Shown here in pieces: positions 12,624 to 49,180 of a stretch of DNA of 64,000 bases (its first letter is position 1; every line of letters begins with the position of its first letter). Location of the stretch: positions 849,640 to 913,639 of the forward strand of contig CAVWFS010000019.1 in NCBI GenBank assembly GCA_963754315.1, given 5' to 3'. Below the pieces are notes generated by a model. That model did no database searches. It was not told where the DNA came from and saw only the letters and a list, made by a program, of their open reading frames with translations. Source of the DNA: an uncultured Candidatus Rokubacteria bacterium (lineage in GTDB: Bacteria; Methylomirabilota; Methylomirabilia; Rokubacteriales; CSP1-6). The translations under genes and the position numbers were made by a program.

Positions 12624-14111
12624 TCAAGGCGAGAAAGTCAGCTCAGCGACGCTCAGGGCAACGATGTCGCCGAGATCGACGGCATTGTCGTTCAGGCTCC
12701 CCGGGCGGATCAGCGCCGAGAACACGCGGTAGACACCGCTGGCGATGACCCCAGCCGGGGGGAAAATGTACTGAAAAAAGCTCGAGGCATCGAGCTGGAA
12801 GCCAGGGGGGACGACCTGCATCGGCGACAGAGAGGTTGGCGCCGACAGCGATCCCGTCCGCTCGAGGACGCCGTGGCCAGAGAACAGGACCAGCGTCTTT
12901 CGGTCAGGGAGCAGGGCACCGACGTAGAGGTCCAGGGCCGAGCTGGCGTCCGGATTGTGTACCGACAATCCGAGGCTTAGCGTCTGCCCTGAGCCGAACC
13001 GAGTTCCATTGAGCCAGACTCGCGTGTTGGCAAGTAGGGCGGCGCTCGGTCGCAACACATAGGCGTCCTCGTCGACGTCCGTCACCGTCACCAACAGACC
13101 AAAACCGGGCACATGGCCCAATCGACCGAACATACCATTCGGCGACGCGGCCCCGGGGCCGCCGGAAACCGTTGCCGACGACCACGAACGAGTCTCTGTG
13201 TCGAGGAAGTAAACGATGTCCCCGCCGCTCCAGACTATCATCCGATCGGTATCCGGGTCGTAGGCGAGGCCTGGCGACGTGTTGTTCGCGAGCAGAGGCG
13301 TGCCCGGCCACTTCTCGCGAATGAACGAGCTCCCTGGCCCGATGTCGTAGACTGACACGCCTCCGTTGTTGTCGTCTGGTCCTCCGATGATGACGAGCTT
13401 GCTCCTCACCGGATCCACGGCACTCGTCATGTGGTAGTCAATGAAATTGTCACTGGCCAGCCGATCGTAACTGTTGGTTTCGAAGGTGTACGCGTAGAGA
13501 TCCCGAGAGTCATGCAGATATACTTTCTTCGAGTTCGGGTCGTATGCGGCCACCACTCCGGCGTCGGGACCTGGTTGTGGACCCGACGGATCCATCCGCT
13601 GCCAGATAAGGGACGGGAAGTGGAACGTCCACGTGACACGACTGAAGTGCCCCGGGCCACAGGCGAGGCTTCCACCGTACACGAAGAGCCGGTCGGCATG
13701 GGCAATGTAGGCCATGCCACCGTAGCTGTGCCGGGAATTGGGCCGCCCGTCCGCCAGCGTCTCCTGGCAGTCGCGAGTACCAATCGGTAAATTAGGCGGG
13801 CTCGGGTCGGTCAAGCGCTGGATCGTCCGCGTGGCCAGATCCAGTGCGTACAGCTCGTTTCCTGCGTAGTCGTTATGGCCGCCGCCCCACATGATAAGGC
13901 GGTCTCGAGTCGAGTCCACCACCCCACCGTTCCAAGCTAGGATCACGTTCTTGCAGCGCCCAGCAAAGTCGTAGTCCGGTGTGGACGGCGGGCACACCGC
14001 TCGCATCTTCGTGTTGGGAATGGCTGTCCAGCCGGAAGGAAAATCCTGCGCGTTGGCCCGCGATGCTTGCGGGGGAAGCAACCAGGGCACCAGGAGCATC
14101 ACGGTGGCCAT
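12624..14111 (-). CDS. secreted Kelch-like beta-propeller protein (family A) with C-terminal ~120-aa 'D' domain; galactose-oxidase-like architecture
   Basis: Signal peptide (start taken at M27 'MATVMLLVPWLL'). Repeated blade-like motifs (ILAWNGG, WGGGHNDY, FVYGGSL, LVIIGG, MIVWSGG). Paralog of 41582..42724 and of the N-terminus of 44606..49180. C-terminal domain shared with 15249..16891. Confidence 0.7.
   Translation of the reverse strand: MATVMLLVPWLLPPQASRANAQDFPSGWTAIPNTKMRAVCPPSTPDYDFAGRCKNVILAWNGGVVDSTRDRLIMWGGGHNDYAGNELYALDLATRTIQRLTDPSPPNLPIGTRDCQETLADGRPNSRHSYGGMAYIAHADRLFVYGGSLACGPGHFSRVTWTFHFPSLIWQRMDPSGPQPGPDAGVVAAYDPNSKKVYLHDSRDLYAYTFETNSYDRLASDNFIDYHMTSAVDPVRSKLVIIGGPDDNNGGVSVYDIGPGSSFIREKWPGTPLLANNTSPGLAYDPDTDRMIVWSGGDIVYFLDTETRSWSSATVSGGPGAASPNGMFGRLGHVPGFGLLVTVTDVDEDAYVLRPSAALLANTRVWLNGTRFGSGQTLSLGLSVHNPDASSALDLYVGALLPDRKTLVLFSGHGVLERTGSLSAPTSLSPMQVVPPGFQLDASSFFQYIFPPAGVIASGVYRVFSALIRPGSLNDNAVDLGDIVALSVAELTFSP
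12627..12989. repeat. IR-D copy 1: ~360-bp segment encoding C-terminal 'D' domain, inverted repeat partner at 16526..16888 (~85-90% identity)
   Basis: Encoded peptides 'GQTLSLGLSVHNP...VVPPGFQLDASSFFQYIFPPAGV...ALSVAELTFSP' vs 'GQTLNLGLSVHNP...VVPPGFQLDAPSFFQYTFPPAGV...ALSVVELSFAP'. Antisense track ORFs 12492..12980(+) and 16574..16906(-) are also similar, which shows nucleotide-level similarity. Confidence 0.7.
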
Positions 14112-14220
14112 CAGCAGATACCGAATCAAGTGAGCGTCCCTCCACTTGTGTCGTGGACACCAGGGATCGTGTCCCCAGCAGTGGTGCACGAGCGGTGATT
14201 CGCGGAGGGCAGGTGCCCCT

Positions 14221-15109
14221 TCAGTTCAGCACGGCCGACAGCCACACGGACTGATTGTCGCTGAGCGCGTGCAGCCCTTCAAGCTGCATATATTGCCGCT
14301 GCAGCTGCCACTCGTCGTTCGGCTCGAGCAGCGGCCCCCACCAGCCGGATGATCGCCGCCTCGTTGGGGAAAATTCCCACCACGTCCGTCCGCTAGCTTG
14401 CAGCGCTCCAGCGGATTGGTGCGATCGAGCCATGCCTGGGACCAGCGTCAGCCCCCCTTAGGGGGAACTTCTCCCGCAGCTGGCCGCTCACCGCGCCATT
14501 GAGCGATGGCCGCTCCCTGGCTCTCCTGGGCGAACACCGTGTTGATCAAGGCCAGGACCATCTACCGCTGCCCCTTGCCCGCGTGGGCCAGGGCCTTGCG
14601 GATGAAGTGCACCCGACACCGCTGCCAGCTCGCCTTGAGCACCTTGGCCACGGCTGCCCTCAACCCCTCGTGGGCATGGGAAATCACCAGCTTGACGCCA
14701 CGCAACCCCCGCCGGGTCAGGCTGCGCAGGACGCTGGTCCAAAACGGCTCCGCTTCGCTCGGCCCCACCACCAGCCCCAGCACCTCTCGCACCCCGTCGG
14801 TGTTCACCGCCACCGACACGATGCGCCCCGCCTCCCGCACCTTCACGTAGGTCGCATCGATCCACAGGTACGGCCAATCCCGTCCAGGGGTCGGTTCACG
14901 AATGTCCCGACCCGCTCGTCAATCTGACTGCACAGCCGCGAGACTTGACTCTTCGAGATGCCGCTCATCCCCAGCGCGCGGACCACCTCATCCACCGAGC
15001 GCGCGTCGACACCCCCTGGATGTACGCCTCTTGGATCACCAGGCAACTGGTGTCTACCTCGCCCGGGCGGCGGTTGGCTGGACCGACTCAAGCAAGGCGG
15101 GCACATCAC
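14221..15109 (-). mobile_element. degraded IS256-family transposase gene (frameshifts, in-frame stop, N-terminus missing)
   Basis: Track ORFs 14843..15109(-) '...VVRALGMSGISKSQVSRLCSQIDERVGTFVNRPLDG' and 14562..14846(-) 'KVREAGRIVSVAVNTDGVREVLGLVVGPSEAEPFWTSVLRSLTRRGLRGVKLVISHAHEGLRAAVAKVLKASWQRCRVHFIRKAL' match conserved IS256/mutator-type transposase blocks but are in different frames. Further downstream 'MVLALINTVFAQESQGAAIAQW' follows an in-frame TAG. 14221..14433(-) carries 'LLEPNDEWQLQRQYMQLEGLHALSD' (IS256 C-terminus) in yet another frame. Confidence 0.75.
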
Positions 15110-15407
15110 GCTTGTGTATCATGCTCGTCGGCTATCGAGCGGTGCCAACTCTACGGCGAAACGTGAGCCAGTGGCTGGACCAGGCGCCCCGGCTCGTCGC
15201 CGTGCATAGGGCAGTCGATGTTGCCAGTGATCCGCTCACCCCTGACCCTTGACGGCTGACCGCACAGGGTCGATCCTGATGGTCAGTGGGCATGGGGCGC
15301 CATTTCGAAAGAAGCACGCGGTGATTCGAGGCCGTCAGGCTGCGCTCGAGCTTCTCCTGTTCACCCTCGCCATATCTCTGCTGGTAGGAACCGCTCAGGG
15401 GCACACG

Positions 15408-16468
15408 ACTCCGATCGACATTCCGAGTGGGGTCTTCATTGCGCTGGAGCGGCCGGACTGGGGCCGGGGGCCGGCGCGGGAGACGAAGCACTCGACGTAC
15501 GCGCACAACCCGATCGACGGGCGGCTGTACCAGATGGGGGGGACTTTGGGGGGACGGTGGGGGGGTCGTCGTACCGGCAGGACATGTACTCGGTGTCGAT
15601 TGCGGAGCGGTGGGCGAGCCGGAACGACCGGAACGCGGGCTGGCGGCAGGAGTACCCGTACTGTGGGCCGGAGGGAGGGCGGCAGCCGAAGTCGCCGGAC
15701 TATGTCGGGTGGACGTGGGACACCAAGCGGCGGGTGTTCTGGAGCGTGCCGGGCACGTTTGTAATCCCGGCGGCGGTGTGTCCAGGCATCACGGCGAGCT
15801 GGGGGGACGACCCCCCGAAGTATTTGTTCAACCACCTGATGACCTTTGATCCCTTCGAGCCGGACCTGACCCAGCGCTGGCAGGACCGGGGGCGCGACAT
15901 TGGGCCGACGGCCGTGGACACGTGGATGAGCGTGTACGACGCGGGGACCGACAGTCTGATTCGCTTCGGGTGGGACGGGGCGCGCGGGGCGATGGTGAAC
16001 ATCTATGACATTACGGCCGGGCAGTGGACGGCGAAGTTGCTGGGGTTGAACGCGGTGGGGCAGGACATCCGGATCTTTAAGGAGATGCTGGCGGCGGACT
16101 GGGGGCAGCGGGTGATTTATGTGATCGACGGGATTGCGGGGCGGCTGCATCGCTACCGGGTAGATGGGCGGACGATCGAGGACCTGGGGGTGGTGCCGGG
16201 GGGCCCGATCGCCTATGCGGCCAACAATGATGCCTACGCGGTGTGGGACAGCCTGCACCGGGTGCTGTTCTTTTTCCGGATGGACACGAGCATCCTGCAC
16301 GTCTATCACCCGGACACGCAGGAGTGGGAGACGCCACCGCTGGTGACAGATCCGCCGGGGCTGACGCCGCACGTGCGGCACGCGGCGGTGTTCGACCCGT
16401 ACCAGAACGTGCTGGTCCTCCTGGGGACGACGGACACGGCGAACCCCTACATGTACCTGTACCGCTAT
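15408..16468. repeat. IR-B copy 1: ~1.06-kb segment ~97% identical (inverted) to 46406..47470 inside the giant gene
   Basis: Encoded proteins identical over long stretches (e.g. 'DIGPTAVDTWMSVYDAGTDSLIRFGWDGARGAMVNIYDITAGQWTAKLLGLNAVGQDIRIFKEMLAADWGQRVIYVIDGIAGRLHRYRVDGRTIEDLG'). Antisense/alternate-frame track ORFs are also near-identical (16243..16482+ vs 46293..46631-; 15395..16558- vs 45554..47050+), which proves DNA-level identity. Confidence 0.85.
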
Positions 16469-16525
16469 GCGGAAGAAGGTAGGCCGAGCACCCGGCTCTC
16501 CCTCAGTGGAATCCAGTTCCATGCG

Positions 16526-16888
16526 GGCCAGACGTTGAATCTCGGACTGTCCGTCCACAATCCCAACGAGAACTCACCTCTCGAGCTTTACGTCGGCGCC
16601 GTGCTTCCGGACGGGAAGACCCTGGTTCTGTTCTCTGGCCCCGGCGTCCTCGAGCGGACGGGATCGCTGTCCGCACTCGCCTCCCTGTCGCCGATGCAGG
16701 TCGTTCCCCCTGGCTTTCAGCTCGATGCACCGAGCTTTTTCCAGTACACGTTCCCCCCCGCCGGGGTCACTGCGAGCGGTGTCTACCGTGTGTTCTCGGC
16801 GTTGATCCGCCCGGCAAGCCTGGACGACAATGCCGTCGATCCCGACGATATCGTCGCCCTGAGCGTGGTCGAACTGAGTTTCGCGCCG
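16526..16888. repeat. IR-D copy 2 (partner of 12627..12989)
   Basis: See IR-D copy 1. Confidence 0.7.
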
Positions 16889-18168
16889 TGAGCATGCGCT
16901 GCACAATCACCTCAATGAGGTCTACTGCCATCGGGATACGGCCAGCCGTCCTCGTCATCCTCGCGATCGTCTTGCAACCCCTCTCGGTCAGCGCCAAGGA
17001 GATCGGACCCGAAGCGGACTGGTGCCGCGAGGCGAATACCCTGCCAGCCGGCGCTGAGCTCCTGCTACGTCCAGGCGACTACCACGGCCCTTGCACGATT
17101 CGGCGCGGGGAGGGAGGCGCGGGAGGGCCGATCTCCATTCGCGCCAAGGATCCCGACCGGCCCGCCCGCATCGTGTACTCCGGCGGCAGCCACAACGTGC
17201 TGAATATCCGTCGCGACGACGTGACCATCCGCGGTCTCGAATTCGGGCCGACACTACAGGATGTCGACGGCATCCGGATCTACGACGGCAACAGGATTAC
17301 CATCGAGGACTGCCACTTCTCGCAGATGGGTGGTATTGCCGTTGTGGCGAATTATGCCAACGTTCGCGACCTCACCATTCGGCGAAACGCCATCCGGCAT
17401 TCGAAGTCGACGGCGATGTACTTCGGGTGCCATGACGGGATCTCGTGCACCGCCTCCGATCTCGCTATCGAGCACAACTTTATCGACGGCGTTGATACCG
17501 AGCATGGGATCGGCTACGGCATCCAGATCAAACTCAACTCAACGGCAACCATCCGCGACAACGTGATCGTCAACACCAAGGGACCCGGCATCATGGTCTA
17601 CGGAGCGGCCGACCCCTCCCGCGTCAGCCTGGTAGAGAGGAACCTTGTGGCGGGCTCGCGCACCTCGTCGGGTATCGTGGTCGGCGGCGGTCCGGCGGTG
17701 GTTCGCAATAACGTCGCTCTCGCCAACGCCGAAGTCGGGGTCGGGCTTGAGGACTATCGCCGACGGGGACTCCTTCAGGGGATTCTAGTTGCTCACAACA
17801 CGCTGTACGGGAACAGCAAGGGCGCGATCGGCGTGCCCGCCTCCGGTCGCCTCGAAGCCAAAGTGATCAACAACGCGGCGCACGCCAAGGTCGGGACTCG
17901 GTCGTTGCCGGCCGACCGATCGGGTTTGCTCGCCAGGGGCAATGTCGACTGTTCCCTTGCCCCATGCTTCGGCAATCCGGAGGGGATGGACTTCTCGCCT
18001 CATGCCACCTCACCGCTCTTGGGTCGGGGGCGCCCCGAGGCTGACCAGAGGATGCCCGTAGACGACTACTTGGGGCGGCGGCGCGGAGGGTTGCCCACGC
18101 CCGGCGCATTCGACGGCGCGGCGGAGCCCCTTGTCATCGGCATCCAGCCGGGCGAGCGCCCTCGATGA
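16888..18168 (+). CDS. secreted right-handed parallel beta-helix (pectin-lyase-fold) protein, putative polysaccharide lyase/hydrolase (family C)
   Basis: Signal peptide. Repetitive beta-helix rungs ('NVLNIRRDDVTIRGLEF', 'IRIYDGNRITIEDCHF', 'IAVVANYANVRDLTIRRNAI', 'GIQIKLNSTATIRDNVI', 'GIVVGGGPAVVRNNVA'). ~45-50% identical to the C-terminal 380 aa of 44606..49180. Start overlaps stop of upstream gene (translational coupling). Confidence 0.7.
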   Translation: MSMRCTITSMRSTAIGIRPAVLVILAIVLQPLSVSAKEIGPEADWCREANTLPAGAELLLRPGDYHGPCTIRRGEGGAGGPISIRAKDPDRPARIVYSGGSHNVLNIRRDDVTIRGLEFGPTLQDVDGIRIYDGNRITIEDCHFSQMGGIAVVANYANVRDLTIRRNAIRHSKSTAMYFGCHDGISCTASDLAIEHNFIDGVDTEHGIGYGIQIKLNSTATIRDNVIVNTKGPGIMVYGAADPSRVSLVERNLVAGSRTSSGIVVGGGPAVVRNNVALANAEVGVGLEDYRRRGLLQGILVAHNTLYGNSKGAIGVPASGRLEAKVINNAAHAKVGTRSLPADRSGLLARGNVDCSLAPCFGNPEGMDFSPHATSPLLGRGRPEADQRMPVDDYLGRRRGGLPTPGAFDGAAEPLVIGIQPGERPR

Positions 18169-18375
18169 ACTCCCACGATCCACGCGCAAATGTGCTGCTC
18201 GTTTTGGGTCGTTGCTGCAATTTTTGCGGCTACCGACGGCAGAAATGTCTGATTCCCCGACGTTCGTTTCTCACTAATAGCCACTAACGCCTATCCCAAC
18301 CTGCCATCCGTGGAGCAACTCACGTGGCTGCGCCACATGGCTAACAAAATCAAACCCTTTCGTGACAGAACTCAA

Positions 18376-18390
18376 AGTGGCACCTGTCTT
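18376..18390 (+). promoter_or_regulatory. sigma-54 (RpoN) -24/-12 promoter element, TGGCAC-N5-TTGC, immediately upstream of EPS priming transferase gene
   Basis: Read directly: 'aaagTGGCACctgtcTTGCgacta', an exact match to GG-N10-GC spacing and consensus. ~18 bp upstream of GTG start at 18408. Two sigma-54 activators are encoded in the locus. Confidence 0.55.
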
Positions 18391-18407
18391 GCGACTAACC
18401 CACTCTC

Positions 18408-19781: not shown

Positions 19782-19785
19782 GCCG

Positions 19786-22059: not shown

Positions 22060-22187
22060 CCACTGCCTGGCGACTGTTACCGGTCACCGTGCCATCGCCG
22101 TTAGCCTCAGCGGTCGCGGAGCAGCCGCATCGTCGACGTGCGGAGCATGCTGGGTGGCAACCGTCGTCGCATCGTGACCGTCTAAGC

Positions 22188-23042
22188 ATGCGCAACGCGC
22201 TCACCTTTGACGTCGAGGAGTACTTCCACGTGGAGGCATTCAAGGACATCATCGAGACCGACCGGTGGGCCAGCCTTGAGTCGCGGGTCGTGGCGAGCAC
22301 ACACCGGGTGCTCGATCTCCTCGAGGCGCGCCACGTGTCGGCGACGTTTTTTGTCCTCGGTTGGGTCGCCGACCGGCACCGGGCTCTCGTGCGCGAAATC
22401 CAGTCGCGAGGCCACGAGGTGGCTTGCCACAGCTACGCGCACCAGGTGATCTACACCATGGACCGTGAGGCTTTCCGGGCCGACGTACGCCGGGCGAAGC
22501 AAGCCCTCGAGGACGCGACGGGGGCCACGGTCCTAGGCTATCGGGCGCCCACGTTCTCTGTGGTGGAGCAGACGCTGTGGGCGCTCGAAGTCCTCGCCGA
22601 AGAGGGCTTTCGCTACGACTCGAGCATCTTCCCGATACGTCACGACCGTTATGGAATGTCCCAGGCGCCTCGCTTCCCGCACCGTGTGTCCTTGCCGAGC
22701 GGCGGAAGGATAGTGGAGTTCCCTGTGTCAACTATGAGGGTGGTAGGGCAGAACGTGCCCTTCTCGGGCGGGGGGTACTTTCGGGTAGCACCGTATCCTC
22801 TTGTCCGGGCTGCCTTACGCCATGTCAACCGGCGCGACCGGCTGGCAGCCATGGTCTATCTCCATCCTTGGGAGATGGACCCGGAGCAACCACGCTTTCC
22901 GGTCGGGGCGGTAGCACGCGTACGCCACTACGCCAACCTTGGCCAGACAGCCGCCAAGCTCGACCGCCTGCTTCAGGACTTCTCCTTCGCTCCGGCCTGT
23001 CAGGTGCTCGGCGAGCAGGGCTTCTGGGAGGTCACCGCGTGA
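22188..23042 (+). CDS. polysaccharide deacetylase family protein, PEP-CTERM-locus subfamily (XrtA-associated)
   Basis: N-terminus 'MRNALTFDVEEYFHVEAF...' and overall NodB-like core + C-terminal extension, characteristic of exosortase-locus deacetylases. Start at M45 of track ORF. Confidence 0.8.
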   Translation: MRNALTFDVEEYFHVEAFKDIIETDRWASLESRVVASTHRVLDLLEARHVSATFFVLGWVADRHRALVREIQSRGHEVACHSYAHQVIYTMDREAFRADVRRAKQALEDATGATVLGYRAPTFSVVEQTLWALEVLAEEGFRYDSSIFPIRHDRYGMSQAPRFPHRVSLPSGGRIVEFPVSTMRVVGQNVPFSGGGYFRVAPYPLVRAALRHVNRRDRLAAMVYLHPWEMDPEQPRFPVGAVARVRHYANLGQTAAKLDRLLQDFSFAPACQVLGEQGFWEVTA

Positions 23043-24134
23043 ACATCGTCACCGTGGTGGGCGCCCGCCCGAACTTCGTGAAGATCGCCCCGATCATGGT
23101 CGAGTTGGGCCGCTGTCCGGAGCTATCTTCGATGTCTGATTCACACCGGTCAGCACTACGACGGGCCTATGTCCGAGCAGTTCTTCGCCGATCTCGACTA
23201 TCCGGCCTCCCGACATCAACCTCGAGGTGGGCTCCGGCTCACACGCCGCTCAGATCGCCGAGGTCATGCGGGGCTCGAACCCGTGCTGGAGCGTCTGCGC
23301 CCTGATATGGTGCTGGTGGTCGGAGACGTGAACTCGACATTCGCCGCGGCCATCATCGCGGTCAAGATGAGCATTCCCGTTGCCCACGTCGAAGCCGGTC
23401 TCCGAAGCTTCGATCGCACGCATGCCGGAGGAGATCAACAGGATCCTGACCGATGCTGTCGCGGACTGCTCTTCGCCACCGAGGAGACCGCGCAGACGCA
23501 ACCTGGCCGCGGAGGGCGTCGCCCCAGAGCAGCATCCATTTCGTCGGCAACGTCATGATCGATACGCTCTTGCCGCTTCAAGACCAAGGCGTCGGCCTCA
23601 CGAATTCTCGAGGAGCTCGGCCTCGCCCACCGCGGATTCGTGGTGTTGACTCTACATCGTCCGAGCAACGTGGACAGTTCGGAGGCGCTGCAGCGCCTGC
23701 TCGGTGCCCTCGCCTGCATCGGCTCCGATGTGCCCATTGTCTTTCCGGTTCATCCAAGGACGTGGCCGCGGCTGAAACGAGCACAGTCGACGACGGCCAT
23801 CGCCCGTGGCCTCAGGTTGATCGATCCACTGTCCTATCTCGACTTCATCAAGCTCATGAGCAGCGCTGTCTGCGTGCTGACCGACTCCGGCGGCATCCAG
23901 GAGGAAACCACGGCTCTCGGCATCCCCTGCCTGACCCTTCGCACCACCACGGAGCGACCGGTGACGACCACGTGCGGTACCAATCGAGTCGTGGGGCTCG
24001 ACCCCGAGAGGATCGCGCGGGCATGGGATGAGGTCCGCGACGGACAATGGCCGCGCGGAAACATCCCGGAACTGTGGGACGGACGGACTGCCGAGCGAAT
24101 TGTGCGCATTCTACGCGGGCGAGAGAGGAACTGA
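23039..24134 (+). pseudogene. wecB: UDP-N-acetylglucosamine 2-epimerase (non-hydrolysing) gene, heavily frameshifted (>=5 frame changes in 1.1 kb)
   Basis: Conserved WecB blocks appear in order but across track ORFs in different frames (23039 frame, 23169..23558, 23380..23649, 23453..24031, 23640..24134). The blocks are 'VNIVTVVGARPNFVKIAPIMVEL', 'LIHTGQHYDGPMSEQFFADL', 'PDINLEVGSGSHAAQIAEVM', 'LEPVLERLRPDMVLVVGDVNSTFAAAIIAVKMSIPVAHVEAGLRSFDRT', 'MPEEINRILTDAVAD', 'IHFVGNVMIDTLL', 'VLTLHRPSNVDS...VFPVHPRTWPRL...VLTDSGGIQEETTALGIPCLTLRTTTERP'. Confidence 0.7.
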
Positions 24135-24143
24135 GAGCATCCG

Positions 24144-34861: not shown

Positions 34862-34863
34862 CC

Positions 34864-37501: not shown

Positions 37502-37523
37502 GCGTGCGGCTTGGAGCGCGGAC

Positions 37524-39859: not shown

Positions 39860-40205
39860 GGCCAGTCATGGATCCCCGGCTCCCGGGATTATTGGCCTTA
39901 TTGGAGCGGAAGCAGCTTCAGGAGGCTGCGGCGGGGCCCTCCGTTCCCGTCAACGCGGTCATACTCGGGCGATTCCCCCCGCTACTCACAGTTGTTTGCC
40001 GGTATCAACTACCTTTGCGGATCATTGCCCAAGAGTACCGGTATCGCCTCAATCGCCTTCTCCATATCCTCTCCCCGCGATCGCGAGAGGTGTTGCGCAC
40101 CCCGCCCGCGGCGCCTTGTGCTGAAGACCCCGCGTCATTCGCGCGCGCGCTTCACCTCCCGATTCCCTTTCAGCAGACTGCGTCGGCCCCCGGGGGAGAC
40201 CTCTT

Positions 40206-41552: not shown

Positions 41553-41581
41553 GTCAACATGGCACCCCAGAGAATTAGTCA

Positions 41582-42724
41582 ATGAACGCTACGAAGCGGT
41601 ACGGGCTGGCGGGCGCCCTTCTTTTTTCCCTCTTTCTTTCCCAAGTCCTTGCCCGAGGCGAGGAAGCTTCCTTCGGTGCCGGCTGGTCCCCGCTGCCCAA
41701 CACGTCGCTGCGGACGGTGTGTCCCCCGAACACAGCCCAGTATGGGTTCGCCGACCGGTGCCAGAACGTGATTCTGGCCTGGAATGGCGGCGTGATTGAC
41801 ACACGGCGCGGTCGCCTGATCGTGTGGGGAGGGGGGCACAACGATTACCGGGGCAACGAGATCTACGCGATCACCGTCAAGCCACCGAAAGTTGAGCGAC
41901 TGACAAACCCATCGCCCCCGAATGTGCCCCTCAACACCACCAACTGCACGACCACGCTGGCGGACGGGACGCCCAACTCGCGGCATACGTACGGCGGTCT
42001 GGCCTACATCGAACACGTCGACCGCATGTTCGTCTACGGGGGAAGCCTGGGCTGCAGCCCTGGCCACTTCGGCGGTGATACCTGGACGTTCAGCTTTGCC
42101 ACCAACACGTGGCAGGCCATGAGGCCGTCGGGCCCACAGCCGCGCTACGACGCCGGCATTGTCGCCGCCTACGATCCCAACACCCGGAAGGTCTTCCTGC
42201 ACGACGCCTGGGATCTCTTCGCCTACACGTTCGAGACCAACAGCTACCAGCGGCTGGCCACCGGCAATCACATCGACTACCACATGACGGCGGCGGTGGA
42301 TCCTATACGCAAAAAACTCATCATCGTAGGGGGAACGGCCGGCAGCGGCGGCGGGGTCACCGTCTACGATATCGGAGCGCGAAGTGGATTCGGGCGGCAA
42401 CAGTGGACAACAACCGGCGGAGATCGAATCGTGCACACCGCATCGCCGGGGCTCGCGTACGATCCTGACTCCGACCGGATGGTGGCGTGGGCCGGCGGGG
42501 ATACGTTGCACAGCCTGAATATGGATACCCGAATGTGGACTGCGCACAGATTTTCGGGGGGACCGGATACTGCGCCAGAGAACGGAATGTTCGGGCGGTG
42601 GGGTTATTTGGCGCAGTACGGAGTGTTTGTCACGGTCACGAGCGTGGACCGTAATGCCTATGTTTTGCGCTTAACCAACGCACCACGCACGGACGACCCA
42701 GCGCCGGCTGGCGGTTCACGTTGA
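41582..42724 (+). CDS. secreted Kelch-like beta-propeller protein (family A paralog, no D domain)
   Basis: Signal peptide 'MNATKRYGLAGALLFSLFLSQVLA'. Residues 62-265 are 100% identical to residues 96-299 of the giant protein 44606..49180; flanks diverge. Confidence 0.75.
   Translation: MNATKRYGLAGALLFSLFLSQVLARGEEASFGAGWSPLPNTSLRTVCPPNTAQYGFADRCQNVILAWNGGVIDTRRGRLIVWGGGHNDYRGNEIYAITVKPPKVERLTNPSPPNVPLNTTNCTTTLADGTPNSRHTYGGLAYIEHVDRMFVYGGSLGCSPGHFGGDTWTFSFATNTWQAMRPSGPQPRYDAGIVAAYDPNTRKVFLHDAWDLFAYTFETNSYQRLATGNHIDYHMTAAVDPIRKKLIIVGGTAGSGGGVTVYDIGARSGFGRQQWTTTGGDRIVHTASPGLAYDPDSDRMVAWAGGDTLHSLNMDTRMWTAHRFSGGPDTAPENGMFGRWGYLAQYGVFVTVTSVDRNAYVLRLTNAPRTDDPAPAGGSR
41765..42376. repeat. IR-A copy 1: ~610-bp segment essentially identical (inverted) to 48389..49000
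   Basis: Main-frame proteins are identical. Alternate-frame track ORFs are identical too (41922..42122+ = 48643..48843-, 66 aa each; 42109..42468+ vs 48309..48656- identical for ~89 aa then diverge), which demonstrates nucleotide identity. Confidence 0.85.
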
Positions 42725-42763
42725 GCCGATCTTGCCGGAGACGAGCGAAAAGGAGTTAGGGTC

Positions 42764-43255
42764 ATGTATATGTATCCCCTTCGCGCCGCGAGCGCAATTG
42801 TGGTCCTTGCCGCTACTGTACTCGCACTGCCCTTCCACGCGGTAGCGGCCCCGCCTCAATCCGCGCTCAGCAGCACGATCAGCACGAACCCAATCATCAT
42901 CGGCAGTCAGCTACGCGAGGCCCTTCGCCTGGCCGGGATCGCTCTCCAACAGCTGGACCGACTCGCTCCCGAAGACTCGCTCGACCAGGCTGCTGCCACC
43001 TGTCGCGAGGTGTATGTCCTCATCCGGGCAGCCCGGAGCGGGATGATCAACGCCAAGGCAAAGGCCCGGTTCCCCGACCCGCTTCTCGACTGGGAAATCG
43101 AGCGCACGACGATCGCCTGGAATGAGTCCCGACGCCCGGTGGAAGATGCGAACGGCACCCTCAGCTACAATAAACCTGAGTACGTCCGTGCGGCCACGGA
43201 ACACCTGAATATTGCGGTGGCCAACATCGAACTCGTGCTTCAGGTCCTGCCCTGA
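42764..43255 (+). CDS. small secreted hypothetical protein (signal peptide + ~135-aa alpha-helical-looking domain), lower GC than surroundings
   Basis: 'MYMYPLRAASAIVVLAATVLALPFHAVAAPP' signal. No recognisable motif. Occupies the position between family A and B genes that the IS256 remnant occupies in the other block. Confidence 0.45.
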   Translation: MYMYPLRAASAIVVLAATVLALPFHAVAAPPQSALSSTISTNPIIIGSQLREALRLAGIALQQLDRLAPEDSLDQAAATCREVYVLIRAARSGMINAKAKARFPDPLLDWEIERTTIAWNESRRPVEDANGTLSYNKPEYVRAATEHLNIAVANIELVLQVLP

Positions 43256-43321
43256 CCCCGCCGGGGATGTGACCGTGCCCGCCCATGCCTCGGTTGTGAC
43301 AAAACCCGACAGAGTTGGCGC

Positions 43322-44509
43322 ATGAGGAGGCACGCTCGTTCCCTGCTGTTCGGGGGTCTGTTGCTCGGCAGCCTTATGATAGCGGTCGCGCGGATCGAAG
43401 GTGAGAGTGCTTCGCCGCCCGCATCATTCGTTCTCCCGAAGCCGATCGACATTCCGAACGGGCTGTTCGTGGCACTGGAGCGGCCAGACATCGGTCGGGG
43501 GGTGGCGGGTGAAACAAAGCACGTCACCTGGGCCCACAACCCTGTGGACGGGCGGCTGTACCAGATGGGGGGGGATTTCAGCGGGCCGGTGGGGGGGTCC
43601 TCGTACCGGCAAGACATGTACTCGGTGTCGATTGCGGAGCGGTGGGCGAGCCGGAACGACCGGAACGCGGGCTGGCGGCAGGAGTACCCGTACTGTGGGC
43701 CGGAGGGGGGGCGGCAGCCGAAGTCGCCCGACTATGTGGGGTGGACGTGGGACACGAAGCGGCGAGTGTTCTGGAACGTGCCGGGCACGTTTGTGATCCC
43801 GGCAGCGGTGGTGTGCCCGGGCGTCACGTCCAGTTGGGCGGACGATCCGCCGAAGTATCTCTTCAACCACCTGATGACCTTCGATCCGTTCGAGCCGGAT
43901 CTGACGAAGCGCTGGAAGGACGTGGGGACCAACATTGGGCCGACCCCGGTGGACACGTGGATGAGCGTGTACGACGCAGGGACCGATAGTCTCGTTCGTT
44001 TCGGGTGGGATGGCGGCCGCGGGGCGATGGTGAACGTCTACGACATCGCGAAGGGCCGGTGGGCGGAGAAGCCCCTCGGACGGAATGCTCTCGGGCAGGA
44101 CATCCGGATCTGGAAGGAGATGCTGGCGCCGGACTGGGGGCAGCGAGTGATCTACGCGATCGATGGGCTCGCGGGGCGGCTGCATCGCTACCAGGTGGAC
44201 GGGCGGACGATCGAGGACTTGGGGGCGGTGCCGGGGGGCCCGATCGCCTATGCGGCCAACAATGATGCCTACGCGGTGTGGGATAGTCTGCACCGAGTGC
44301 TGTTCTTTTTCCGGATGGACACGAGCATGCTGCACGTCTATCACCCGACTCGAAAGACCTGGGAGACCCCGCCGATGGCCACCGATCCCCCAGCGCTCAA
44401 ACCCCACGTCCGCCACGGGTTGGTGTTCGACTCATATCAGAACGTGCTAGTATTTCTCGGAACCACTGATACGTCGAATCTATATCTATACTTGTATCGC
44501 TACCGCTGA
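43322..44509 (+). CDS. secreted propeller-like protein (family B paralog, intact, no D domain)
   Basis: Signal peptide 'MRRHARSLLFGGLLLGSLMIAVA'. Shares 'PIDIPNGLFVALERPD...SSYRQDMYSVSIAERWASRNDRNAGWRQEYPYCGPEGGRQPKSPDYVGWTWD...' with 15249..16891 and the giant protein. Strand-like motifs (RLYQMGG, RVFWNVPG, VIYAIDG, VLFFFRMD, VLVFLGT) suggest a propeller. Confidence 0.7.
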   Translation: MRRHARSLLFGGLLLGSLMIAVARIEGESASPPASFVLPKPIDIPNGLFVALERPDIGRGVAGETKHVTWAHNPVDGRLYQMGGDFSGPVGGSSYRQDMYSVSIAERWASRNDRNAGWRQEYPYCGPEGGRQPKSPDYVGWTWDTKRRVFWNVPGTFVIPAAVVCPGVTSSWADDPPKYLFNHLMTFDPFEPDLTKRWKDVGTNIGPTPVDTWMSVYDAGTDSLVRFGWDGGRGAMVNVYDIAKGRWAEKPLGRNALGQDIRIWKEMLAPDWGQRVIYAIDGLAGRLHRYQVDGRTIEDLGAVPGGPIAYAANNDAYAVWDSLHRVLFFFRMDTSMLHVYHPTRKTWETPPMATDPPALKPHVRHGLVFDSYQNVLVFLGTTDTSNLYLYLYRYR

Positions 44510-44605
44510 CTGCCTCGGTCAGCCCCCCGCGGGCGAGCGTCGCCTCAGCCTGGAGTCGCGTCTCGGATCAGGATGTCAGCCAGTGTACCTGCTCGAGGCT
44601 GAAGA

Positions 44606-47600
44606 TCACTCGTGCAGTTCGAAGGCACCAACATCGGCGGCTCCGCTGCGCGGAACGTCCACGAAGTCATCGGCAGGTCGCCAGGGCTCAGGCCCGCTCC
44701 CCGCCGCGTCGATCAACGGACTGTTCGGAGCTGGCCAGAGGACGTAGGGCGGCGGCGGCATGGCTTGAACAAAGCACCCCGTCGTCGGTCCGCATGTGAT
44801 GTTCCCCAGGATGGTGCCGGCCGGCGAGCTCGGCCAGAGATCCGGAGTCCCCACCAGGGGCCGAATGGCGTTGAAGGCGATGACGTTGCCGCTCTGGTTG
44901 CCCCACCCCGCTACATTGATGCCGGAGTCGCTGTTGTCGAGTACCGTGTTGTGCACAATCCACACGTTCTTCTGCAAATTTCGACGCCCATAGTTCTGGG
45001 CGCTGATCCCCCCGAAGGCATTTCCGACTAAAACATTGTTCCACACGATGGCGGGGCCGCCCCCTACCACGATCCCGCCTTCCTCCAGCGACCCCTCCAC
45101 GTAATTCTTCTCGATAACACTGGGCGGATCGCCTCGGTTGGAGCCGTACACCATGATACCTGGTCCCTTCGTTCGGGAAATTGTGTTGCCCCGCACCGTG
45201 CCGTAGGAGTTCAGCTTGATCTGTAGGCCGTACCCGATGCCGTTCGAGGTGACCCCGTTGATCACGTTGTTCTCGACGAGCAGCTCCGTCACGTGACAAC
45301 TCGTGCCGTCGTGGCACCCGAAGTACAGCCCAGTCTGATTCAAGTCCTTGAAGAGGTTCTCGCGCACCGTGAGTCGGTGGCTATCCTGCGTGTTGGCACT
45401 GATGGCAATGCCCCCGATACCCTCGAATGTGTTCCGTTCGATCACGATATCGTGGGCGCTCCAGATCCTGATGGCATCCACGTCCTCCTGAGTCGGTGCA
45501 AACGCAAAACCCCGAATGTACAGATACCCCGCGCCCCGGAGCTCTAGGACGTTATGATTCGATCCCGCGTAGGCGAAGGTCGCCCGCGAGGAGTTTCCCT
45601 CGTCCTGAGATCGCATCACGATTGGCGCCGCCGCCGTGCCCACCGCCGTGATCCAACACGGACTGGTGTAGGAGCCGGCCACGAAGACGATCTCGGTACC
45701 GGGCTGCGCCTTGTTGAGGATGTTGCACCATGGATCCGCCGCGCCAACCTTGATTGTCGTGCCCGACTGAGCGATCGTGGCACTCGCCGTGTTGGAGTAC
45801 GGACCGAGATTGGCGGCCGCATCGGTGGCCCGCACCCGGTAGCTGTAGCTGGTGCCCGCCGTACGCCCCGTGTCACTGTAGACGGTCCCGCTCGGCGTGG
45901 CCACCTGAGCGAAACTGCTGCAGCCCGCGCCCTGGCACCGCTCCACCAGGTAACCCGTCACCTCAACGTTGTCCGTGGCCGCCGTCCAGCTGAGGTTGAT
46001 CTCGCTGGCGCTGGCCACCGTGGCGCCCAGGTTCGTGGGCGCCGTAGGCGTCATCGTGTCAGCGATCGTGGGCGCCGTGGGCGTCGTCGTGTCAGCGATC
46101 GTGGCACTCGCCGTGTTGGAGTACGGACCGAGATTGGCGGCCGCATCGATGGCCCGCACCCGGTAGCTGTAGCTGGTGCCCGCCGTACGCCCCGTGTCAC
46201 TGTAGATGGTCCCGCTCGGCGTGGCCACCTGAGCGAAACTGCTGCAGCCCGTGCCCTCGCACCGCTCCACCCGGTAACCCGTCACCCCAACGTTATCCGT
46301 GGCCGCCGTCCAGCTGAGGTTGATCTCGCTGGCGCTGGCCACCGTGGCGCCCAGGTTCGTGGGCGCCGTGGGCGTCGTGGTATCTCCCGTTCCGAAAGAC
46401 GGCCTGTAGCGGTAGAAGTACATGTAGGGGTTCGCCGTGTCCGTCGTCCCCAGGAGGACCAGCACGTTCTGGTCCGGGTCGAACACCGCCGCGTGCCGCA
46501 CGTGCGGCGTCAGCCCCGGCGGATCCGTCACCAGCGGTGGTGTCTCCCACTCCTGCGTGTCCGGGTGATAGACGTGCAGGATGCTCGTGTCCATCCGGAA
46601 AAAGAACAGCACCCGGTGCAGGCTGTCCCACACCGCGTAGGCATCATTGTTGGCCGTATAGGCGATCGGGCCCCCCGGCACCGCCCCCAGGTCCTCGATC
46701 GTCCGCCCGTCCACCCGGTAGCGATGCAGCCGCCCCGCAATCCCGTCGATCACATAAATCACCCGCTGCCCCCAGTCCGCCGCCAGCATCTCCTTAAAGA
46801 TCCGGATGTCCTGCCCCACCGCGTTCAACCCCAGCAACTTCGCCGTCCACTGCCCGGCCGTAATGTCATAGATGTTCACCATCGCCCCGCGCGCCCCGTC
46901 CCACCCGAAGCGAATCAGACTGTCGGTCCCCGCGTCGTACACGCTCATCCACGTGTCCACGGCCGTCGGCCCAATGTCGCGCCCCCGGTCCTGCCAGCGC
47001 TGGGTCAGGTCCGGCTCGAAGGGATCAAAGGTCATCAGGTGATTAAATAGGTACTTCGGCGGATCGTCCGCCCAACTGGACGTGATGCCCGGGCAGACCA
47101 CCGCTGCCGGGATCACAAACGTGCCCGGCACGCTCCAGAACACCCGCCGCTTGCTGTCCCACGTCCACCCCACATAGTCCGGCGATTTCGGCTGCCGGCC
47201 CCCCTCCGGCCCACAGTACGGGTACTCCTGCCGCCAGCCCGCGTTCCGGTCGTTCCGGCTCGCCCACCGCTCCGCAATCGACACCGAGTACATGTCCTGC
47301 CGGTACGACGACCCCCCCACCGTCCCCCCAAAGTCGCCCCCCATCTGGTACAGCCGCCCGTCGATCGGGTTGTGCGCGTACGTCGAGTGCTTCGTCTCCC
47401 GCGCCGGCCCCCGGCCCCAGTCCGGCCGCTCCAGCGCTATGAAGACCCCACTTGGAATGTCGATCGGGGTCCCCGGGCGCAGTGGCGGCGGAGCGCTGTT
47501 CGACACGGTCACCAGGCGGGCGGCCGCCGTGGCGCTGTTTCCGGCCGCGTCGCGGGCTACCGCCGTGAGCGTGTGCATCCCATCGCCCTCTGCCGTCGTG

Positions 47601-49180
47601 TCCCACACCACCGCGTAAGGTCCGATCGTCGTCTCTGCCCCCAGATTGGCGCCGTCAAGCTTGAACTGCACTCCCACCACGTTATCGGACGCGGACGCCG
47701 TCACTGTCACCGTCCCCGCGACGGTTGCCCCCGCTGCCGGCGCGCTCAACGTCACCGTCGGGTTGGTGGCATCGGTCGGTGACGCCCCGTTTCCGACGGT
47801 GACTGTGCGGGCGGCCGCCGTGGCGCTGTTTCCAGTGGCATCGCGGGCCACCGCTGTGAGGGTGTGCGCGCCATTGGCCGCTGTCGTCGTATCCCATGCG
47901 ACCGAGTACGGGTGGGTCGTTGCCTCTGTCCCCAGATTGACGCCATCGAGTTTGAACTGGACTCCCACCACGGAGACGTCATCCGACGCGGACGCCGCCA
48001 CCGTCACCGTCCCCGCGACGATCTCGCCTGCGGCCGGCGCGCTGAGCGTCACCGTCAGGTTTGTGGGGTCGGTCGGTGGCCGGTCTGGCGAAGGTTGAAG
48101 CGAAAGGGCGTACGCATCGAGGTCTACGCTCGTCACTGCAACGAACACGCCCGGCCCAGGCACGTAGCCCCACCGGCCGAAAGTCCCGTTCTCCGGCGCC
48201 GCGCCCGGCCCGCCGGTCAACGTCTGCGTCGTCCACGTCTGCGTGTCGGTATTCAAGCTGTAGACGGTGTCCTCCCCAGCCCATACCACCATCCGATCCG
48301 ATCCGGGATCATAACTGATGCCGGGAGACAAGGCGTTGACCACTCCTGGGCCCCCGGTCCACCTCTGCGCCATGTACGCGCTCCCTGGCCCGATGTCGTA
48401 GACGGTGACTCCGCCGCCGCTGCCGGCCGTTCCCCCTACGATGATGAGTTTTTTGCGTATAGGATCCACCGCCGCCGTCATGTGGTAGTCGATGTGATTG
48501 CCGGTGGCCAGCCGCTGGTAGCTGTTGGTCTCGAACGTGTAGGCGAAGAGATCCCAGGCGTCGTGCAGGAAGACCTTCCGGGTGTTGGGATCGTAGGCGG
48601 CGACAATGCCGGCGTCGTAGCGCGGCTGTGGGCCCGACGGCCTCATGGCCTGCCACGTGTTGGTGGCAAAGCTGAACGTCCAGGTATCACCGCCGAAGTG
48701 GCCAGGGCTGCAGCCCAGGCTTCCCCCGTAGACGAACATGCGGTCGACGTGTTCGATGTAGGCCAGACCGCCGTACGTATGCCGCGAGTTGGGCGTCCCG
48801 TCCGCCAGCGTGGTCGTGCAGTTGGTGGTGTTGAGGGGCACATTCGGGGGCGATGGGTTTGTCAGTCGCTCAACTTTCGGTGGCTTGACGGTGATCGCGT
48901 AGATCTCGTTGCCCCGGTAATCGTTGTGCCCCCCTCCCCACACGATCAGGCGACCGCGCCGTGTGTCAATCACGCCGCCATTCCAGGCCAGAATCACGTT
49001 CTTGCAGTAATCCGCGAAAGCGTACTCCGGTGTGTTCGGAGGGCACACCGTCCTCAGTCTCGTATTGGTCATCTCAGTCCAGCCGGCCGGAAAGCTCTGC
49101 GCGTCTGCTTGTCCGACCAGCAGCGCCACCGCCCATGAGATTTGGCAGAGTACAAACAGCAGACGAACAACTTTCGGCAT
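44606..49180 (-). CDS. giant secreted multidomain protein: family A propeller - 2x Ig-like - family B domain - 2x fibronectin type III - right-handed beta-helix (putative surface polysaccharide-active enzyme)
   Basis: Start at M36 (MPKVVRLLFVLCQ...) with GGAGG 7 nt upstream. Two ~90-aa repeats 'TVTLSAPAAG..VAGTVTV.ASASD...VQFKLDG.NLG....PY.V.WDTT....HTLTAVARDA.GNSATAAAR.VTV'. Two FN3-like repeats 'PTAPTNLGATVASASEINLSWTAATDNV.VTGY.VERC.G.GCSSFAQVATPSGT.YSDTGRTAGTSYSYRVRA.DAAANLGPYSNTASATI'. C-terminal beta-helix rungs paralogous to 16888..18168. Confidence 0.8.
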   Translation of the reverse strand: MPKVVRLLFVLCQISWAVALLVGQADAQSFPAGWTEMTNTRLRTVCPPNTPEYAFADYCKNVILAWNGGVIDTRRGRLIVWGGGHNDYRGNEIYAITVKPPKVERLTNPSPPNVPLNTTNCTTTLADGTPNSRHTYGGLAYIEHVDRMFVYGGSLGCSPGHFGGDTWTFSFATNTWQAMRPSGPQPRYDAGIVAAYDPNTRKVFLHDAWDLFAYTFETNSYQRLATGNHIDYHMTAAVDPIRKKLIIVGGTAGSGGGVTVYDIGPGSAYMAQRWTGGPGVVNALSPGISYDPGSDRMVVWAGEDTVYSLNTDTQTWTTQTLTGGPGAAPENGTFGRWGYVPGPGVFVAVTSVDLDAYALSLQPSPDRPPTDPTNLTVTLSAPAAGEIVAGTVTVAASASDDVSVVGVQFKLDGVNLGTEATTHPYSVAWDTTTAANGAHTLTAVARDATGNSATAAARTVTVGNGASPTDATNPTVTLSAPAAGATVAGTVTVTASASDNVVGVQFKLDGANLGAETTIGPYAVVWDTTAEGDGMHTLTAVARDAAGNSATAAARLVTVSNSAPPPLRPGTPIDIPSGVFIALERPDWGRGPARETKHSTYAHNPIDGRLYQMGGDFGGTVGGSSYRQDMYSVSIAERWASRNDRNAGWRQEYPYCGPEGGRQPKSPDYVGWTWDSKRRVFWSVPGTFVIPAAVVCPGITSSWADDPPKYLFNHLMTFDPFEPDLTQRWQDRGRDIGPTAVDTWMSVYDAGTDSLIRFGWDGARGAMVNIYDITAGQWTAKLLGLNAVGQDIRIFKEMLAADWGQRVIYVIDGIAGRLHRYRVDGRTIEDLGAVPGGPIAYTANNDAYAVWDSLHRVLFFFRMDTSILHVYHPDTQEWETPPLVTDPPGLTPHVRHAAVFDPDQNVLVLLGTTDTANPYMYFYRYRPSFGTGDTTTPTAPTNLGATVASASEINLSWTAATDNVGVTGYRVERCEGTGCSSFAQVATPSGTIYSDTGRTAGTSYSYRVRAIDAAANLGPYSNTASATIADTTTPTAPTIADTMTPTAPTNLGATVASASEINLSWTAATDNVEVTGYLVERCQGAGCSSFAQVATPSGTVYSDTGRTAGTSYSYRVRATDAAANLGPYSNTASATIAQSGTTIKVGAADPWCNILNKAQPGTEIVFVAGSYTSPCWITAVGTAAAPIVMRSQDEGNSSRATFAYAGSNHNVLELRGAGYLYIRGFAFAPTQEDVDAIRIWSAHDIVIERNTFEGIGGIAISANTQDSHRLTVRENLFKDLNQTGLYFGCHDGTSCHVTELLVENNVINGVTSNGIGYGLQIKLNSYGTVRGNTISRTKGPGIMVYGSNRGDPPSVIEKNYVEGSLEEGGIVVGGGPAIVWNNVLVGNAFGGISAQNYGRRNLQKNVWIVHNTVLDNSDSGINVAGWGNQSGNVIAFNAIRPLVGTPDLWPSSPAGTILGNITCGPTTGCFVQAMPPPPYVLWPAPNSPLIDAAGSGPEPWRPADDFVDVPRSGAADVGAFELHE
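46406..47470. repeat. IR-B copy 2 (inverted partner of 15408..16468)
   Basis: See IR-B copy 1. Confidence 0.85.
48389..49000. repeat. IR-A copy 2 (inverted partner of 41765..42376)
   Basis: See IR-A copy 1. Confidence 0.85.

Follow-up and report, generated by a model that had tools for sequence, protein, structure and literature searches.

Many bacteria of soil and wastewater form flocs and biofilms by means of exosortase/PEP-CTERM polysaccharide systems, and little is known about the extracellular proteins that act on the polymer they export. In Vibrio cholerae, the vps region contains the rbm cluster, whose products include propeller, FnIII and beta-helix proteins. Other relevant propellers are the AA5 copper-radical oxidases, which have seven blades and among which GlxA works beside a polysaccharide synthase, and six-bladed Kelch proteins such as YjhT/NanM, the bacterial sialic-acid mutarotase, and ESP/NSP, the plant specifier proteins. 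Here we describe a cassette of secreted proteins encoded in a stretch of 64,000 nucleotides (nt; "the window") from an uncultured Candidatus Rokubacteria bacterium (contig CAVWFS010000019.1, positions 849,640 to 913,639 of the forward strand). The cassette comprises the ordered Kelch paralogues A and B, the beta-helix protein C, the small protein X2 and the mobile terminal domain D, and it travels with markers of XrtA-type exopolysaccharide (EPS) systems. In the window it occurs as two blocks, one with genes A1, B1 and C1, the other with A2, X2, B2 and a gene for a 1524-aa fusion protein, G.

The V. cholerae rbm cluster may be taken as the closest working analogy for the cassette, not as a sign of family membership. 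The region encoding Bap1 and RbmC likewise combines secreted propellers, fn3 modules and a parallel beta-helix within an EPS biosynthesis region, and the likeness noted is one of logic and parts list. Bap1 and RbmC have eight-bladed propellers with beta-prism lectin domains, the rbm cluster has neither the rule of paired paralogues nor the fusions described below, and vps is a Wzy-type system whereas the locus studied here is of the XrtA/PEP-CTERM type.

Evidence that A and B belong together comes from the neighbours of module B in other genomes. Module B had 53 detected homologues, nearly all of them standalone proteins of ~390 aa annotated as hypothetical. Scanning one genome per species yielded 15 B loci from the Candidate Phyla Radiation (CPR; Yonathbacteria, Parcubacteria and Saccharibacteria), from the Diapherotrites-Parvarchaeota-Aenigmarchaeota-Nanoarchaeota-Nanohaloarchaeota superphylum (DPANN; Aenigmatarchaeota), and from Nitrospirae, Thermodesulfobacteriota, Rokubacteria, Gammaproteobacteria and Aromatoleum. 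In 8 of the 10 loci whose upstream sequence is long enough to tell, the gene immediately before B is an A gene, and this order is seen in Yonathbacteria, Saccharibacteria, Aenigmatarchaeota, an uncultured archaeon, Nitrospirae, Thermodesulfobacteriota and Rokubacteria.

Besides G, at least seven single open reading frames (ORFs) contain both A and B. These are in loci L001 (A-Big_7x2-B-PG_binding_1), L002, L004 and L011 (A-B-fn3-Disaggr_repeat), and in the proteins P0187 and P0215 (both A-B) and P0191 (A-B-C, 1329 aa, from an Acidobacteriota genome). Two further fusions have the orders B...C (P0185) and D-B (P0005). The five proteins came from a search with full-length G, which was dominated by Big_7-repeat proteins and whose matches were re-screened with the separate modules. 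A and B are separate genes in the window and in L005, L006, L008, L016 and L022, the last of which repeats the divergent layout of block 1, with an A gene facing a D-carrying B gene. Module C takes part as well: it directly follows B in L005, is fused to B in P0185 and P0191, and is found no more than 10 kb from B in L008, L018, L020 and L021. In CPR and DPANN the cassette forms large surface proteins, in organisms whose surface biology is almost unknown; the extracellular tails there are PG_binding_1, Dockerin and Disaggr_repeat, and the B proteins of Saccharibacteria terminate in PG_binding or dockerin domains.

The preliminary description of the window, made from its letters alone, read G as a Rosetta-stone fusion implying that its modules act together. 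The recurrence of A-B adjacency and of A-B(-C) fusions across phyla, in many independent lineages, upholds that reasoning. Because their genes are neighbours or fused in so many lineages, A and B, and with them C, very likely work together. We predict with high confidence that A and B form a functional pair.

The two members of this pair are anciently diverged paralogues and both are six-bladed Kelch-type propellers. Module A exceeds the cut-offs of Kelch models in A1 (PF24681 53.7 bits, cut-off 50; Kelch_4 26.4 bits, cut-off 21.6) and in G (PF24681 55.0 bits, cut-off 50; Kelch_3 26.2 bits, cut-off 22), and it has six four-stranded blades. Module B falls below the Kelch thresholds, its best Pfam score being 18.1 bits (PF24681, cut-off 50), and has no NCBIfam match; in a profile search of the PDB, muskelin alone appeared (E=6e-4). 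B nevertheless folds as a six-bladed Kelch-type propeller and is homologous to a recognised Kelch family. AlphaFold2 modelled B2 with high confidence (predicted local distance difference test, pLDDT, 88.6; predicted template modelling score 0.86), and an hhalign comparison of families A and B gave a probability of 97.4% and an E-value of 9e-12 over 309 aligned columns, that is, homology over the whole length.

Compared with known six-bladed Kelch propellers (LZTR1, KLHDC2/3/10, muskelin, ESP/NSP and YjhT/NanM), the identity of A and B is just 11-19%. They also differ from these in being a secreted, ordered paralogous pair with invariant motifs of their own, and in that B lies beneath the threshold of every Kelch model. 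The motifs first noticed in the window, WGGGHNDY for A and SSYRQDMYSVSIAERWASRNDRNAGWRQEYPYCGPEGG for B, were each found in all three copies of their module. At family level, A carries WGGGHxDYxGNE and NSRHTY, and B carries SYRQ, EYPYCGP and PDxVGWxWD. Polar residues that are nearly invariant across phyla include H85, D87, Y88, N91, E92, N131, R133 and H134 in family A, and K66, H67, E121, D137, D218, R275 and R289 in family B.

A1, in which A is joined to D, had been compared to galactose oxidase, with D as the Ig-like C-terminal domain. In outline A+D does resemble the AA5 oxidases (galactose oxidase, glyoxal oxidase and Streptomyces GlxA), which also pair a Kelch-type propeller with a beta-rich C-terminal domain. 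The comparison fails in detail, given that neither Glyoxal_oxid_N (PF07250) nor the galactose oxidase-like E-set/DUF1929 (PF09118) matched A1, A2 or G at E<=0.01, and copper-radical oxidases were absent among the PDB profile matches of A at E<=1. Family A does conserve H85, Y88, H134, Y136 and three Cys, which may or may not correspond to the Cu ligands (two Tyr, two His) and the Cys-Tyr cross-link of AA5 enzymes. Its closest solved relatives are not copper-radical oxidases, and a galactose oxidase-like identity for module A was rejected. Both A and B have six blades, in contrast to the seven of AA5 enzymes, and D is a distinct mobile domain that itself occurs occasionally on true glyoxal-oxidase-like proteins.

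Module D (126 aa) is an independent, mobile terminal domain that has not been modelled as a family, and no Pfam or NCBIfam model matched it. As B likewise lies outside both collections, the initial impression that B and D belong to no named family was correct. When 1.84 billion cluster representatives were searched exhaustively with HMMER, D was found in 380 clusters (121 at E<=1e-10), always at the extreme C-terminus or directly past the signal peptide. Its partners are S8, M4 and M23 peptidases, FG-GAP and other propellers, beta-helices, a GH53 enzyme and glyoxal-oxidase-like proteins. D was ruled out as a galactose-oxidase E-set or a named immunoglobulin-like (Ig) domain. Its AlphaFold2 model is of low confidence (pLDDT 30-60).

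Module C exceeds the Pfam Beta_helix cut-off of 25.9 bits in both C1 (64.2 bits) and G (65.7 bits). C1 matches Pfam NosD at 38.5 bits, and the C module of G matches NosD as well as Beta_helix. Membership of the NosD family proper (TIGR04247) was rejected, as C1 scored 33.2 and G 19.5 bits, far below the cut-off of 300. C has no sequence homologue in the PDB. Orthologous C modules, that of P0191 and the C gene of L021, matched Pfam Pel9A-like_beta_helix. In being secreted beta-helices encoded in EPS loci, the C proteins resemble EPS-associated beta-helix enzymes such as PL9 Pel9A-type lyases and the C5-epimerase AlgG. By sequence identity, C is split into a standalone subfamily and one seen in fusion proteins only. 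C1 and the C module of G share ~41% protein identity; C1 is 54-57% identical to the standalone C genes of L008, L020 and L021 and groups with them at 54-66%, and the C module of G groups with those of the fusion proteins P0185 and P0191 (62-65%).

The second block had been described as A, B and the giant gene. All three are there, and the block also holds the conserved secreted protein X2, for which no Pfam or NCBIfam match was found. X2 has an orthologue in L016 (84%) and homologues (37-40%) beside B or A-like Kelch genes in L020 (11272-11637) and L021 (20894-21292), and may be a fourth member of the cassette.

The genes between the two blocks identify the polysaccharide system. They encode a priming glycosyltransferase, a chain-length/tyrosine kinase, a deacetylase, a broken epimerase, two FemAB-like proteins, three AsnB-type amidotransferases, GT4 glycosyltransferases, a TIGR03097 ligase, PrsK, an EpsH-family exosortase and PrsR. 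NCBIfam scores are above cut-off for TIGR03013 (priming transferase; 472 bits, cut-off 393), TIGR03006 (deacetylase; 378, 276), TIGR03019 (FemAB-like; 401, 260) and TIGR03097 (O-glycosylation-ligase-like; 465, 188). The exosortase scored 133 bits with TIGR02602 (cut-off 105.6) and 155 bits with the XrtA model, below its cut-off of 208. With these TIGR030xx markers, PrsK/PrsR, an exosortase and export and chain-length genes, as in described XrtA/PEP-CTERM loci, the window holds a bona fide XrtA-type system. What sets it apart from those loci is that A, B, C, D and X2 lie outside the marker families, with neither an NCBIfam match nor a PEP-CTERM signal.

Upstream of block 1 are genes for a PrsT-like tetratricopeptide repeat (TPR) protein, a sigma-54 activator, a TIGR03027-type export protein and a protein with a weak TIGR03016 outer-membrane match. 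The modules were first said to flank the EPS locus; this has to be corrected, since block 1 lies inside it, between the export/outer-membrane genes and the priming glycosyltransferase. Because EPS genes also flank the two blocks, both lie within one polysaccharide super-locus of at least 60 kb. All seven proteins (A1, B1, C1, A2, X2, B2 and G) have a signal-peptide-like N-terminus, judged by eye, and are predicted to be secreted. Every ORF described earlier was recovered by listing and translation, and modules A, B, C and D recur where they had been placed (Table 1).

Table 1. Cassette genes, neighbouring features, conversion tracts and promoter sites, in positions of the window.
Feature	Position	Strand	Remarks
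IS481-like and DUF5372 ORFs	6502-7602	(-)	small IS481-like ORF and a DUF5372 ORF between the PrsT-like gene and the sigma-54 activator gene
Sigma-54 site, one mismatch	6142-6156	(-)	upstream of the PrsT-like TPR gene
A1, ORF	12624-14189	(-)	ORF listing and translation
A1, parts	12624-14129; D 12627-13004	(-)	signal peptide, six-bladed Kelch propeller (module A), 126-aa D tail
Transposase remnant	14562-15109	(-)	IS256/Mutator family; two frames; between divergent A1 and B1; Pfam Transposase_mut
B1	15279-16891; D 16511-16888	(+)	signal peptide, module B propeller, D tail; 1-nt frameshift
C1	16888-18168	(+)	secreted right-handed parallel beta-helix, standalone subfamily; start overlaps B1 stop
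Sigma-54 site, perfect consensus	18378-18392	(+)	just upstream of the TIGR03013 priming glycosyltransferase gene
XrtA/PEP-CTERM-type EPS locus	18408-41552	(+)	between the blocks; Pfam and NCBIfam
UDP-N-acetylglucosamine 2-epimerase gene	23042-24134	(+)	in the EPS operon; spread over three frames
GT4 gene	28985-30526		homologues near A-B in other loci
A2	41582-42724	(+)	standalone module A with signal peptide; starts 30 nt past the prsR stop
X2	42764-43255	(+)	163-aa secreted protein between A2 and B2; no family match
B2	43322-44509	(+)	standalone module B; six-bladed Kelch-type propeller outside all family models
G	44606-49180	(-)	1524-aa fusion protein, convergent to A2-X2-B2; translation and Pfam
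G, signal peptide and A	~48100-49180	(-)	
G, Big_7 x2	47516-48078	(-)	
G, B	46406-47471	(-)	
G, fn3 x2	45770-46376	(-)	
G, C	44606-45760	(-)	beta-helix of the fused subfamily
Conversion tract A2/G	41708-42375 and 48390-49057	(+) in A2	inverted; 99-100% nt identity, sharp edges
Conversion tract B1/G	15407-16467 and 46407-47471	(+) in B1	inverted; 96.6% nt identity overall
Regulator gene	50717-54169	(-)	large adenylate/guanylate-cyclase-AAA-TPR protein, directly past block 2
Second glycosyltransferase set	54388-63972		GT4 x3, AsnB, 2-oxoglutarate-Fe(II) oxygenase, transglutaminase-like genes

Association with polysaccharide genes is not confined to the window. Exosortase genes lie near the cassette in L008, L016 and L017, and homologues of the GT4 gene and the TIGR03097 ligase (41-58% identity) lie no more than ~10 kb from A-B in six loci (L002, L005, L015, L018, L020 and L021). 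In the Rokubacteria locus L008 the order is exosortase-PrsR...A-B...C. L016, an independent forest-soil contig 88% identical to the window, has the order AsnB-methyltransferase-PrsK-exosortase-PrsR-A2-X2-B2; its A2 orthologue is 88% identical and in the same position, and the placement of A2-X2-B2 after prsR, at gaps of 30-67 nt, is kept. The gene for P0191 adjoins EpsH, EpsI, an epimerase and a PEP-CTERM protein. In L018, L020 and L021, B, A-like Kelch genes, C and homologues of X2 lie within glycosyltransferase-rich clusters. A pooled Pfam scan of 75 neighbouring ORFs placed Wzy_C and GT4 at the top of its list, with Polysacc_synt, deacetylase and heparinase II/III among the families further down. 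Co-occurrence of A, B and C near exosortase loci, which had been suggested as a check, is therefore recurrent in other genomes (for example P0191, L008 and L016), and the proposed link to polysaccharide loci holds. It is not universal: the cassette lies among XrtA-system markers in bacteria with large genomes, and the CPR and DPANN loci are without these genes.

From these observations we propose that the cassette binds and processes the cell's own polysaccharide, with glycan recognition by A and B and processing by C, a full model to which we give an even chance. A and B, always in this order, would act as one unit whether they are secreted separately or linked through Ig spacers, and are predicted to recognise polysaccharide. 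A third module, which varies, would be coupled to the A-B unit within an operon or a fusion gene. In bacteria that have XrtA-type EPS loci it would be the beta-helix C, which may cleave or modify the polymer, and in CPR and DPANN a wall- or cohesin-anchoring domain. The tail D may anchor standalone proteins at the cell surface or in the matrix, and proteins with PG-binding or dockerin tails would be placed at the cell surface by these. The target would be the cell's own EPS. The cassette has multiplied in this genome, it lies inside the XrtA EPS super-locus, and its copies exchange sequence by gene conversion. Nothing indicates a new mechanism. None of the folds is new, and secreted glycan-active proteins with several domains are common; the ordered cassette of the paralogues A and B, its spread over CPR, DPANN and soil phyla, the model-less families B and D and the link to XrtA markers appear to be undescribed.

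Several results weigh against this model. The best structural matches of A and B are protein- or ligand-binding Kelch domains and not enzymes, and apart from the generic propeller fold neither module showed similarity to a lectin or to any carbohydrate-active enzyme. Neither C1 nor the C module of G found a relative when searched by sequence against the PDB. Inspection of C-termini and motif scans found no PEP-CTERM signal on A, B, C, G or any other ORF of the window. A perfect sigma-54 -24/-12 consensus (TGGCACCTGTCTTGC) precedes the priming glycosyltransferase gene and a site with one mismatch precedes the PrsT-like gene (Table 1), in a window where near-consensus sites are no more numerous than expected by chance, and no site with up to two mismatches was found upstream of A1, B1, A2, X2, B2, C1 or G. 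In the literature, we found no paper on these families and none linking Kelch proteins with exosortase. Finally, as the cassette occurs in CPR and DPANN without exosortase loci, its target need not be exosortase-type EPS; because A-B there has PG-binding or dockerin tails outside such loci, the conserved function is broader than this EPS.

One alternative is that A, B and G have no catalytic role and serve as matrix proteins or adhesins, structural, lectin-like or protein-binding, which cross-link cells with the matrix, as Bap1 and RbmC do in V. cholerae biofilms, and leave the polymer unprocessed, the beta-helix being a stalk or binding module. The ligand-binding nature of the structural matches would be expected of such proteins, Ig/fn3 spacers and dockerin/PG-binding tails are typical of surface adhesins, and the copy expansion, gene conversion and poly-G tract described below resemble those of variable surface-protein families. 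Yet the nearly invariant polar residues of A and B are many, beyond the usual needs of a scaffold, and the models that C modules match, Pel9A-like and Beta_helix, typically describe enzymes active on glycans. We regard a purely structural role as possible but unlikely.

We consider it rather doubtful that, at the other extreme, the ordered A-B pair is an obligately two-component extracellular enzyme, or an enzyme with its specificity subunit, that acts on surface glycans and represents a new carbohydrate-active family. Such an enzyme might be metal-dependent through the invariant His/Tyr/Asp motifs, and would be conserved from CPR and DPANN to soil Rokubacteria-like and Acidobacteriota lineages. 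It could supply the so far missing extracellular step in which XrtA systems trim or modify their polymer, and the poly-G tract and inverted conversion tracts might add switchable surface variation. If the A-B pair is catalytic, it constitutes a new glycan-active family; if it is not, a new class of matrix or adhesion protein.

It is less probable still that the cassette is an apparatus for foraging or antagonism, acting on foreign glycans such as plant or microbial walls or the envelopes of CPR/DPANN hosts. Its place in polysaccharide loci would then be unrelated to the neighbouring EPS and would merely reflect the tendency of such regions to accumulate accessory secreted genes. Consistent with this, the CPR and DPANN copies carry peptidoglycan-binding, dockerin and disaggregatase-like modules and lack exosortase loci, D is common to secreted S8, M4 and M23 peptidases and a GH53 enzyme, and an insertion sequence (IS) remnant adjoins block 1. 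Against it, the cassette lies near the same XrtA-system markers in at least six independent loci in addition to the three exosortase loci, and the tight spacing of A2-X2-B2 behind prsR is kept in L016.

In both blocks, copies of the modules have exchanged sequence. Self-BLASTN of the window returned repeat pairs with E-values from 1e-32 to 0, far beyond chance. Several pairs involve G: its B module is 96.6% identical to B1 over 1065 nt and 85.4% identical to B2, and its A module is 97.5% identical to A2 over 668 nt and 71% identical to A1. B1 and B2 share 85.5% nt identity, the D tails of A1 and B1 83% over 368 nt, the two fn3 repeats of G 97% and its two Big_7 repeats 80%. Along the alignment of A2 with G, identity per 100 nt runs 28, 64, 99, 100, 100, 100, 100, 99, 55, 68, 69 and 38, so that the middle 600 nt of the A module of G match A2 at 99-100% between sharp edges; along the tract shared by B1 and the B module of G, identity is 95-100% except for one patch at 85%. 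These high-identity segments are gene-conversion tracts between inverted copies. The locus thus illustrates cleanly how gene conversion can homogenise the modules of a fusion gene and of standalone genes.

For G itself, Pfam gave the order Kelch, Big_7 x2, an unmatched B region, fn3 x2 and Beta_helix, in agreement with the order A - Ig x2 - B - FN3 x2 - C read from the translation, and the protein is identical to P0443, a single gene in the deposited 925,744-bp record. That G is a simple fusion of the block-1 modules, as first proposed, is contradicted by its C module, which belongs to the other subfamily and is common to other phyla; this split rules out a recent fusion of the block-1 genes. 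Since that subfamily is seen only in fusion proteins, we infer that the G fusion is an old lineage, and that the near-identity of its A and B modules to A2 and B1 arose because later gene conversion homogenised them. An assembly chimera, mis-joined at near-identical A2-like and B1-like repeats, is very improbable: G does hold 668-nt and 1065-nt segments 97% identical to A2 and B1, a Logan short-read assembly of the same sample breaks near the G repeats (3,979-bp contig), as would be expected, and indel-type defects in B1 and the epimerase gene suggest imperfect assembly, but the 4.6-kb ORF is uninterrupted with a uniform third-position GC content of 0.82, the domain order recurs in independent assemblies (P0191, P0185, P0187, P0215, L001, L004 and L011), the C module is orthologous to those of other fusion proteins and not to C1, L016 independently reproduces the B2/G junction with 560 nt of the G 3' end, and both repeat pairs are inverted, so that a mis-join would merely swap gene ends and leave a multi-module fusion.

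The block-1 genes were recovered as initially listed, with A+D, a frameshifted B+D and C as separate genes. The true start of A1 is probably the ATG at 14129, which gives 501 aa and matches P0054 except for the residue at the alternative start codon. The frameshift of B1 stems from one base missing in a run of G, which reads G7 at 15536-15542 in B1, G8 in B2 and G6C in G. Possible causes are a sequencing error in the homopolymer, a fixed lesion in the gene and an on/off switch that works by strand slippage. The database annotates just the 3' part of B1, as P0003. The TGA stop of B1 (16889-16891) overlaps the GTG start of C1 (16888) in the sequence GTGA, with an ATG following at 16894, and because of this overlap the suggested translational coupling of B1 and C1 is plausible. 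The UDP-N-acetylglucosamine 2-epimerase gene has at least four frame switches, and Pfam matched its C-terminal half only. Lying near B1, it points to local decay or to local indel errors in this assembly.

The two blocks are real, although they do not account for all copies in the genome. Beyond the window, at least one further A (P0056, 379 aa) and at least one further B (P0002, 423 aa) are encoded on the 925,744-bp contig, and both end in the tail PPPAPESLRVF. At its N-terminus P0002 retains part of a Big_7 domain, as would be expected if a third A-Ig-B fusion gene had been disrupted. The genome thus carries at least four copies of A, four of B and two of C.

Between A1 and B1, the two frames of the transposase remnant matched Transposase_mut at E=4.6e-27 and 2.7e-8, over profile positions 171-268 and 114-157 of 379. 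A Transposase_mut gene also adjoins B in L018. The small IS481-like ORF, which encodes a helix-turn-helix (HTH) protein, and the DUF5372 ORF (Table 1) are further traces of mobile elements within the EPS locus. In L022 (3477-6019, minus strand), the genes that come after the A gene encode a MauG/RoxA-like di-haem cytochrome c peroxidase and a GT4 enzyme, a possible hint of redox chemistry near the cassette. In the Aenigmatarchaeota locus L003 (2150-4786, plus strand), the gene beside B encodes eRF1 and is interrupted by an intein with a LAGLIDADG endonuclease and an HTH domain.

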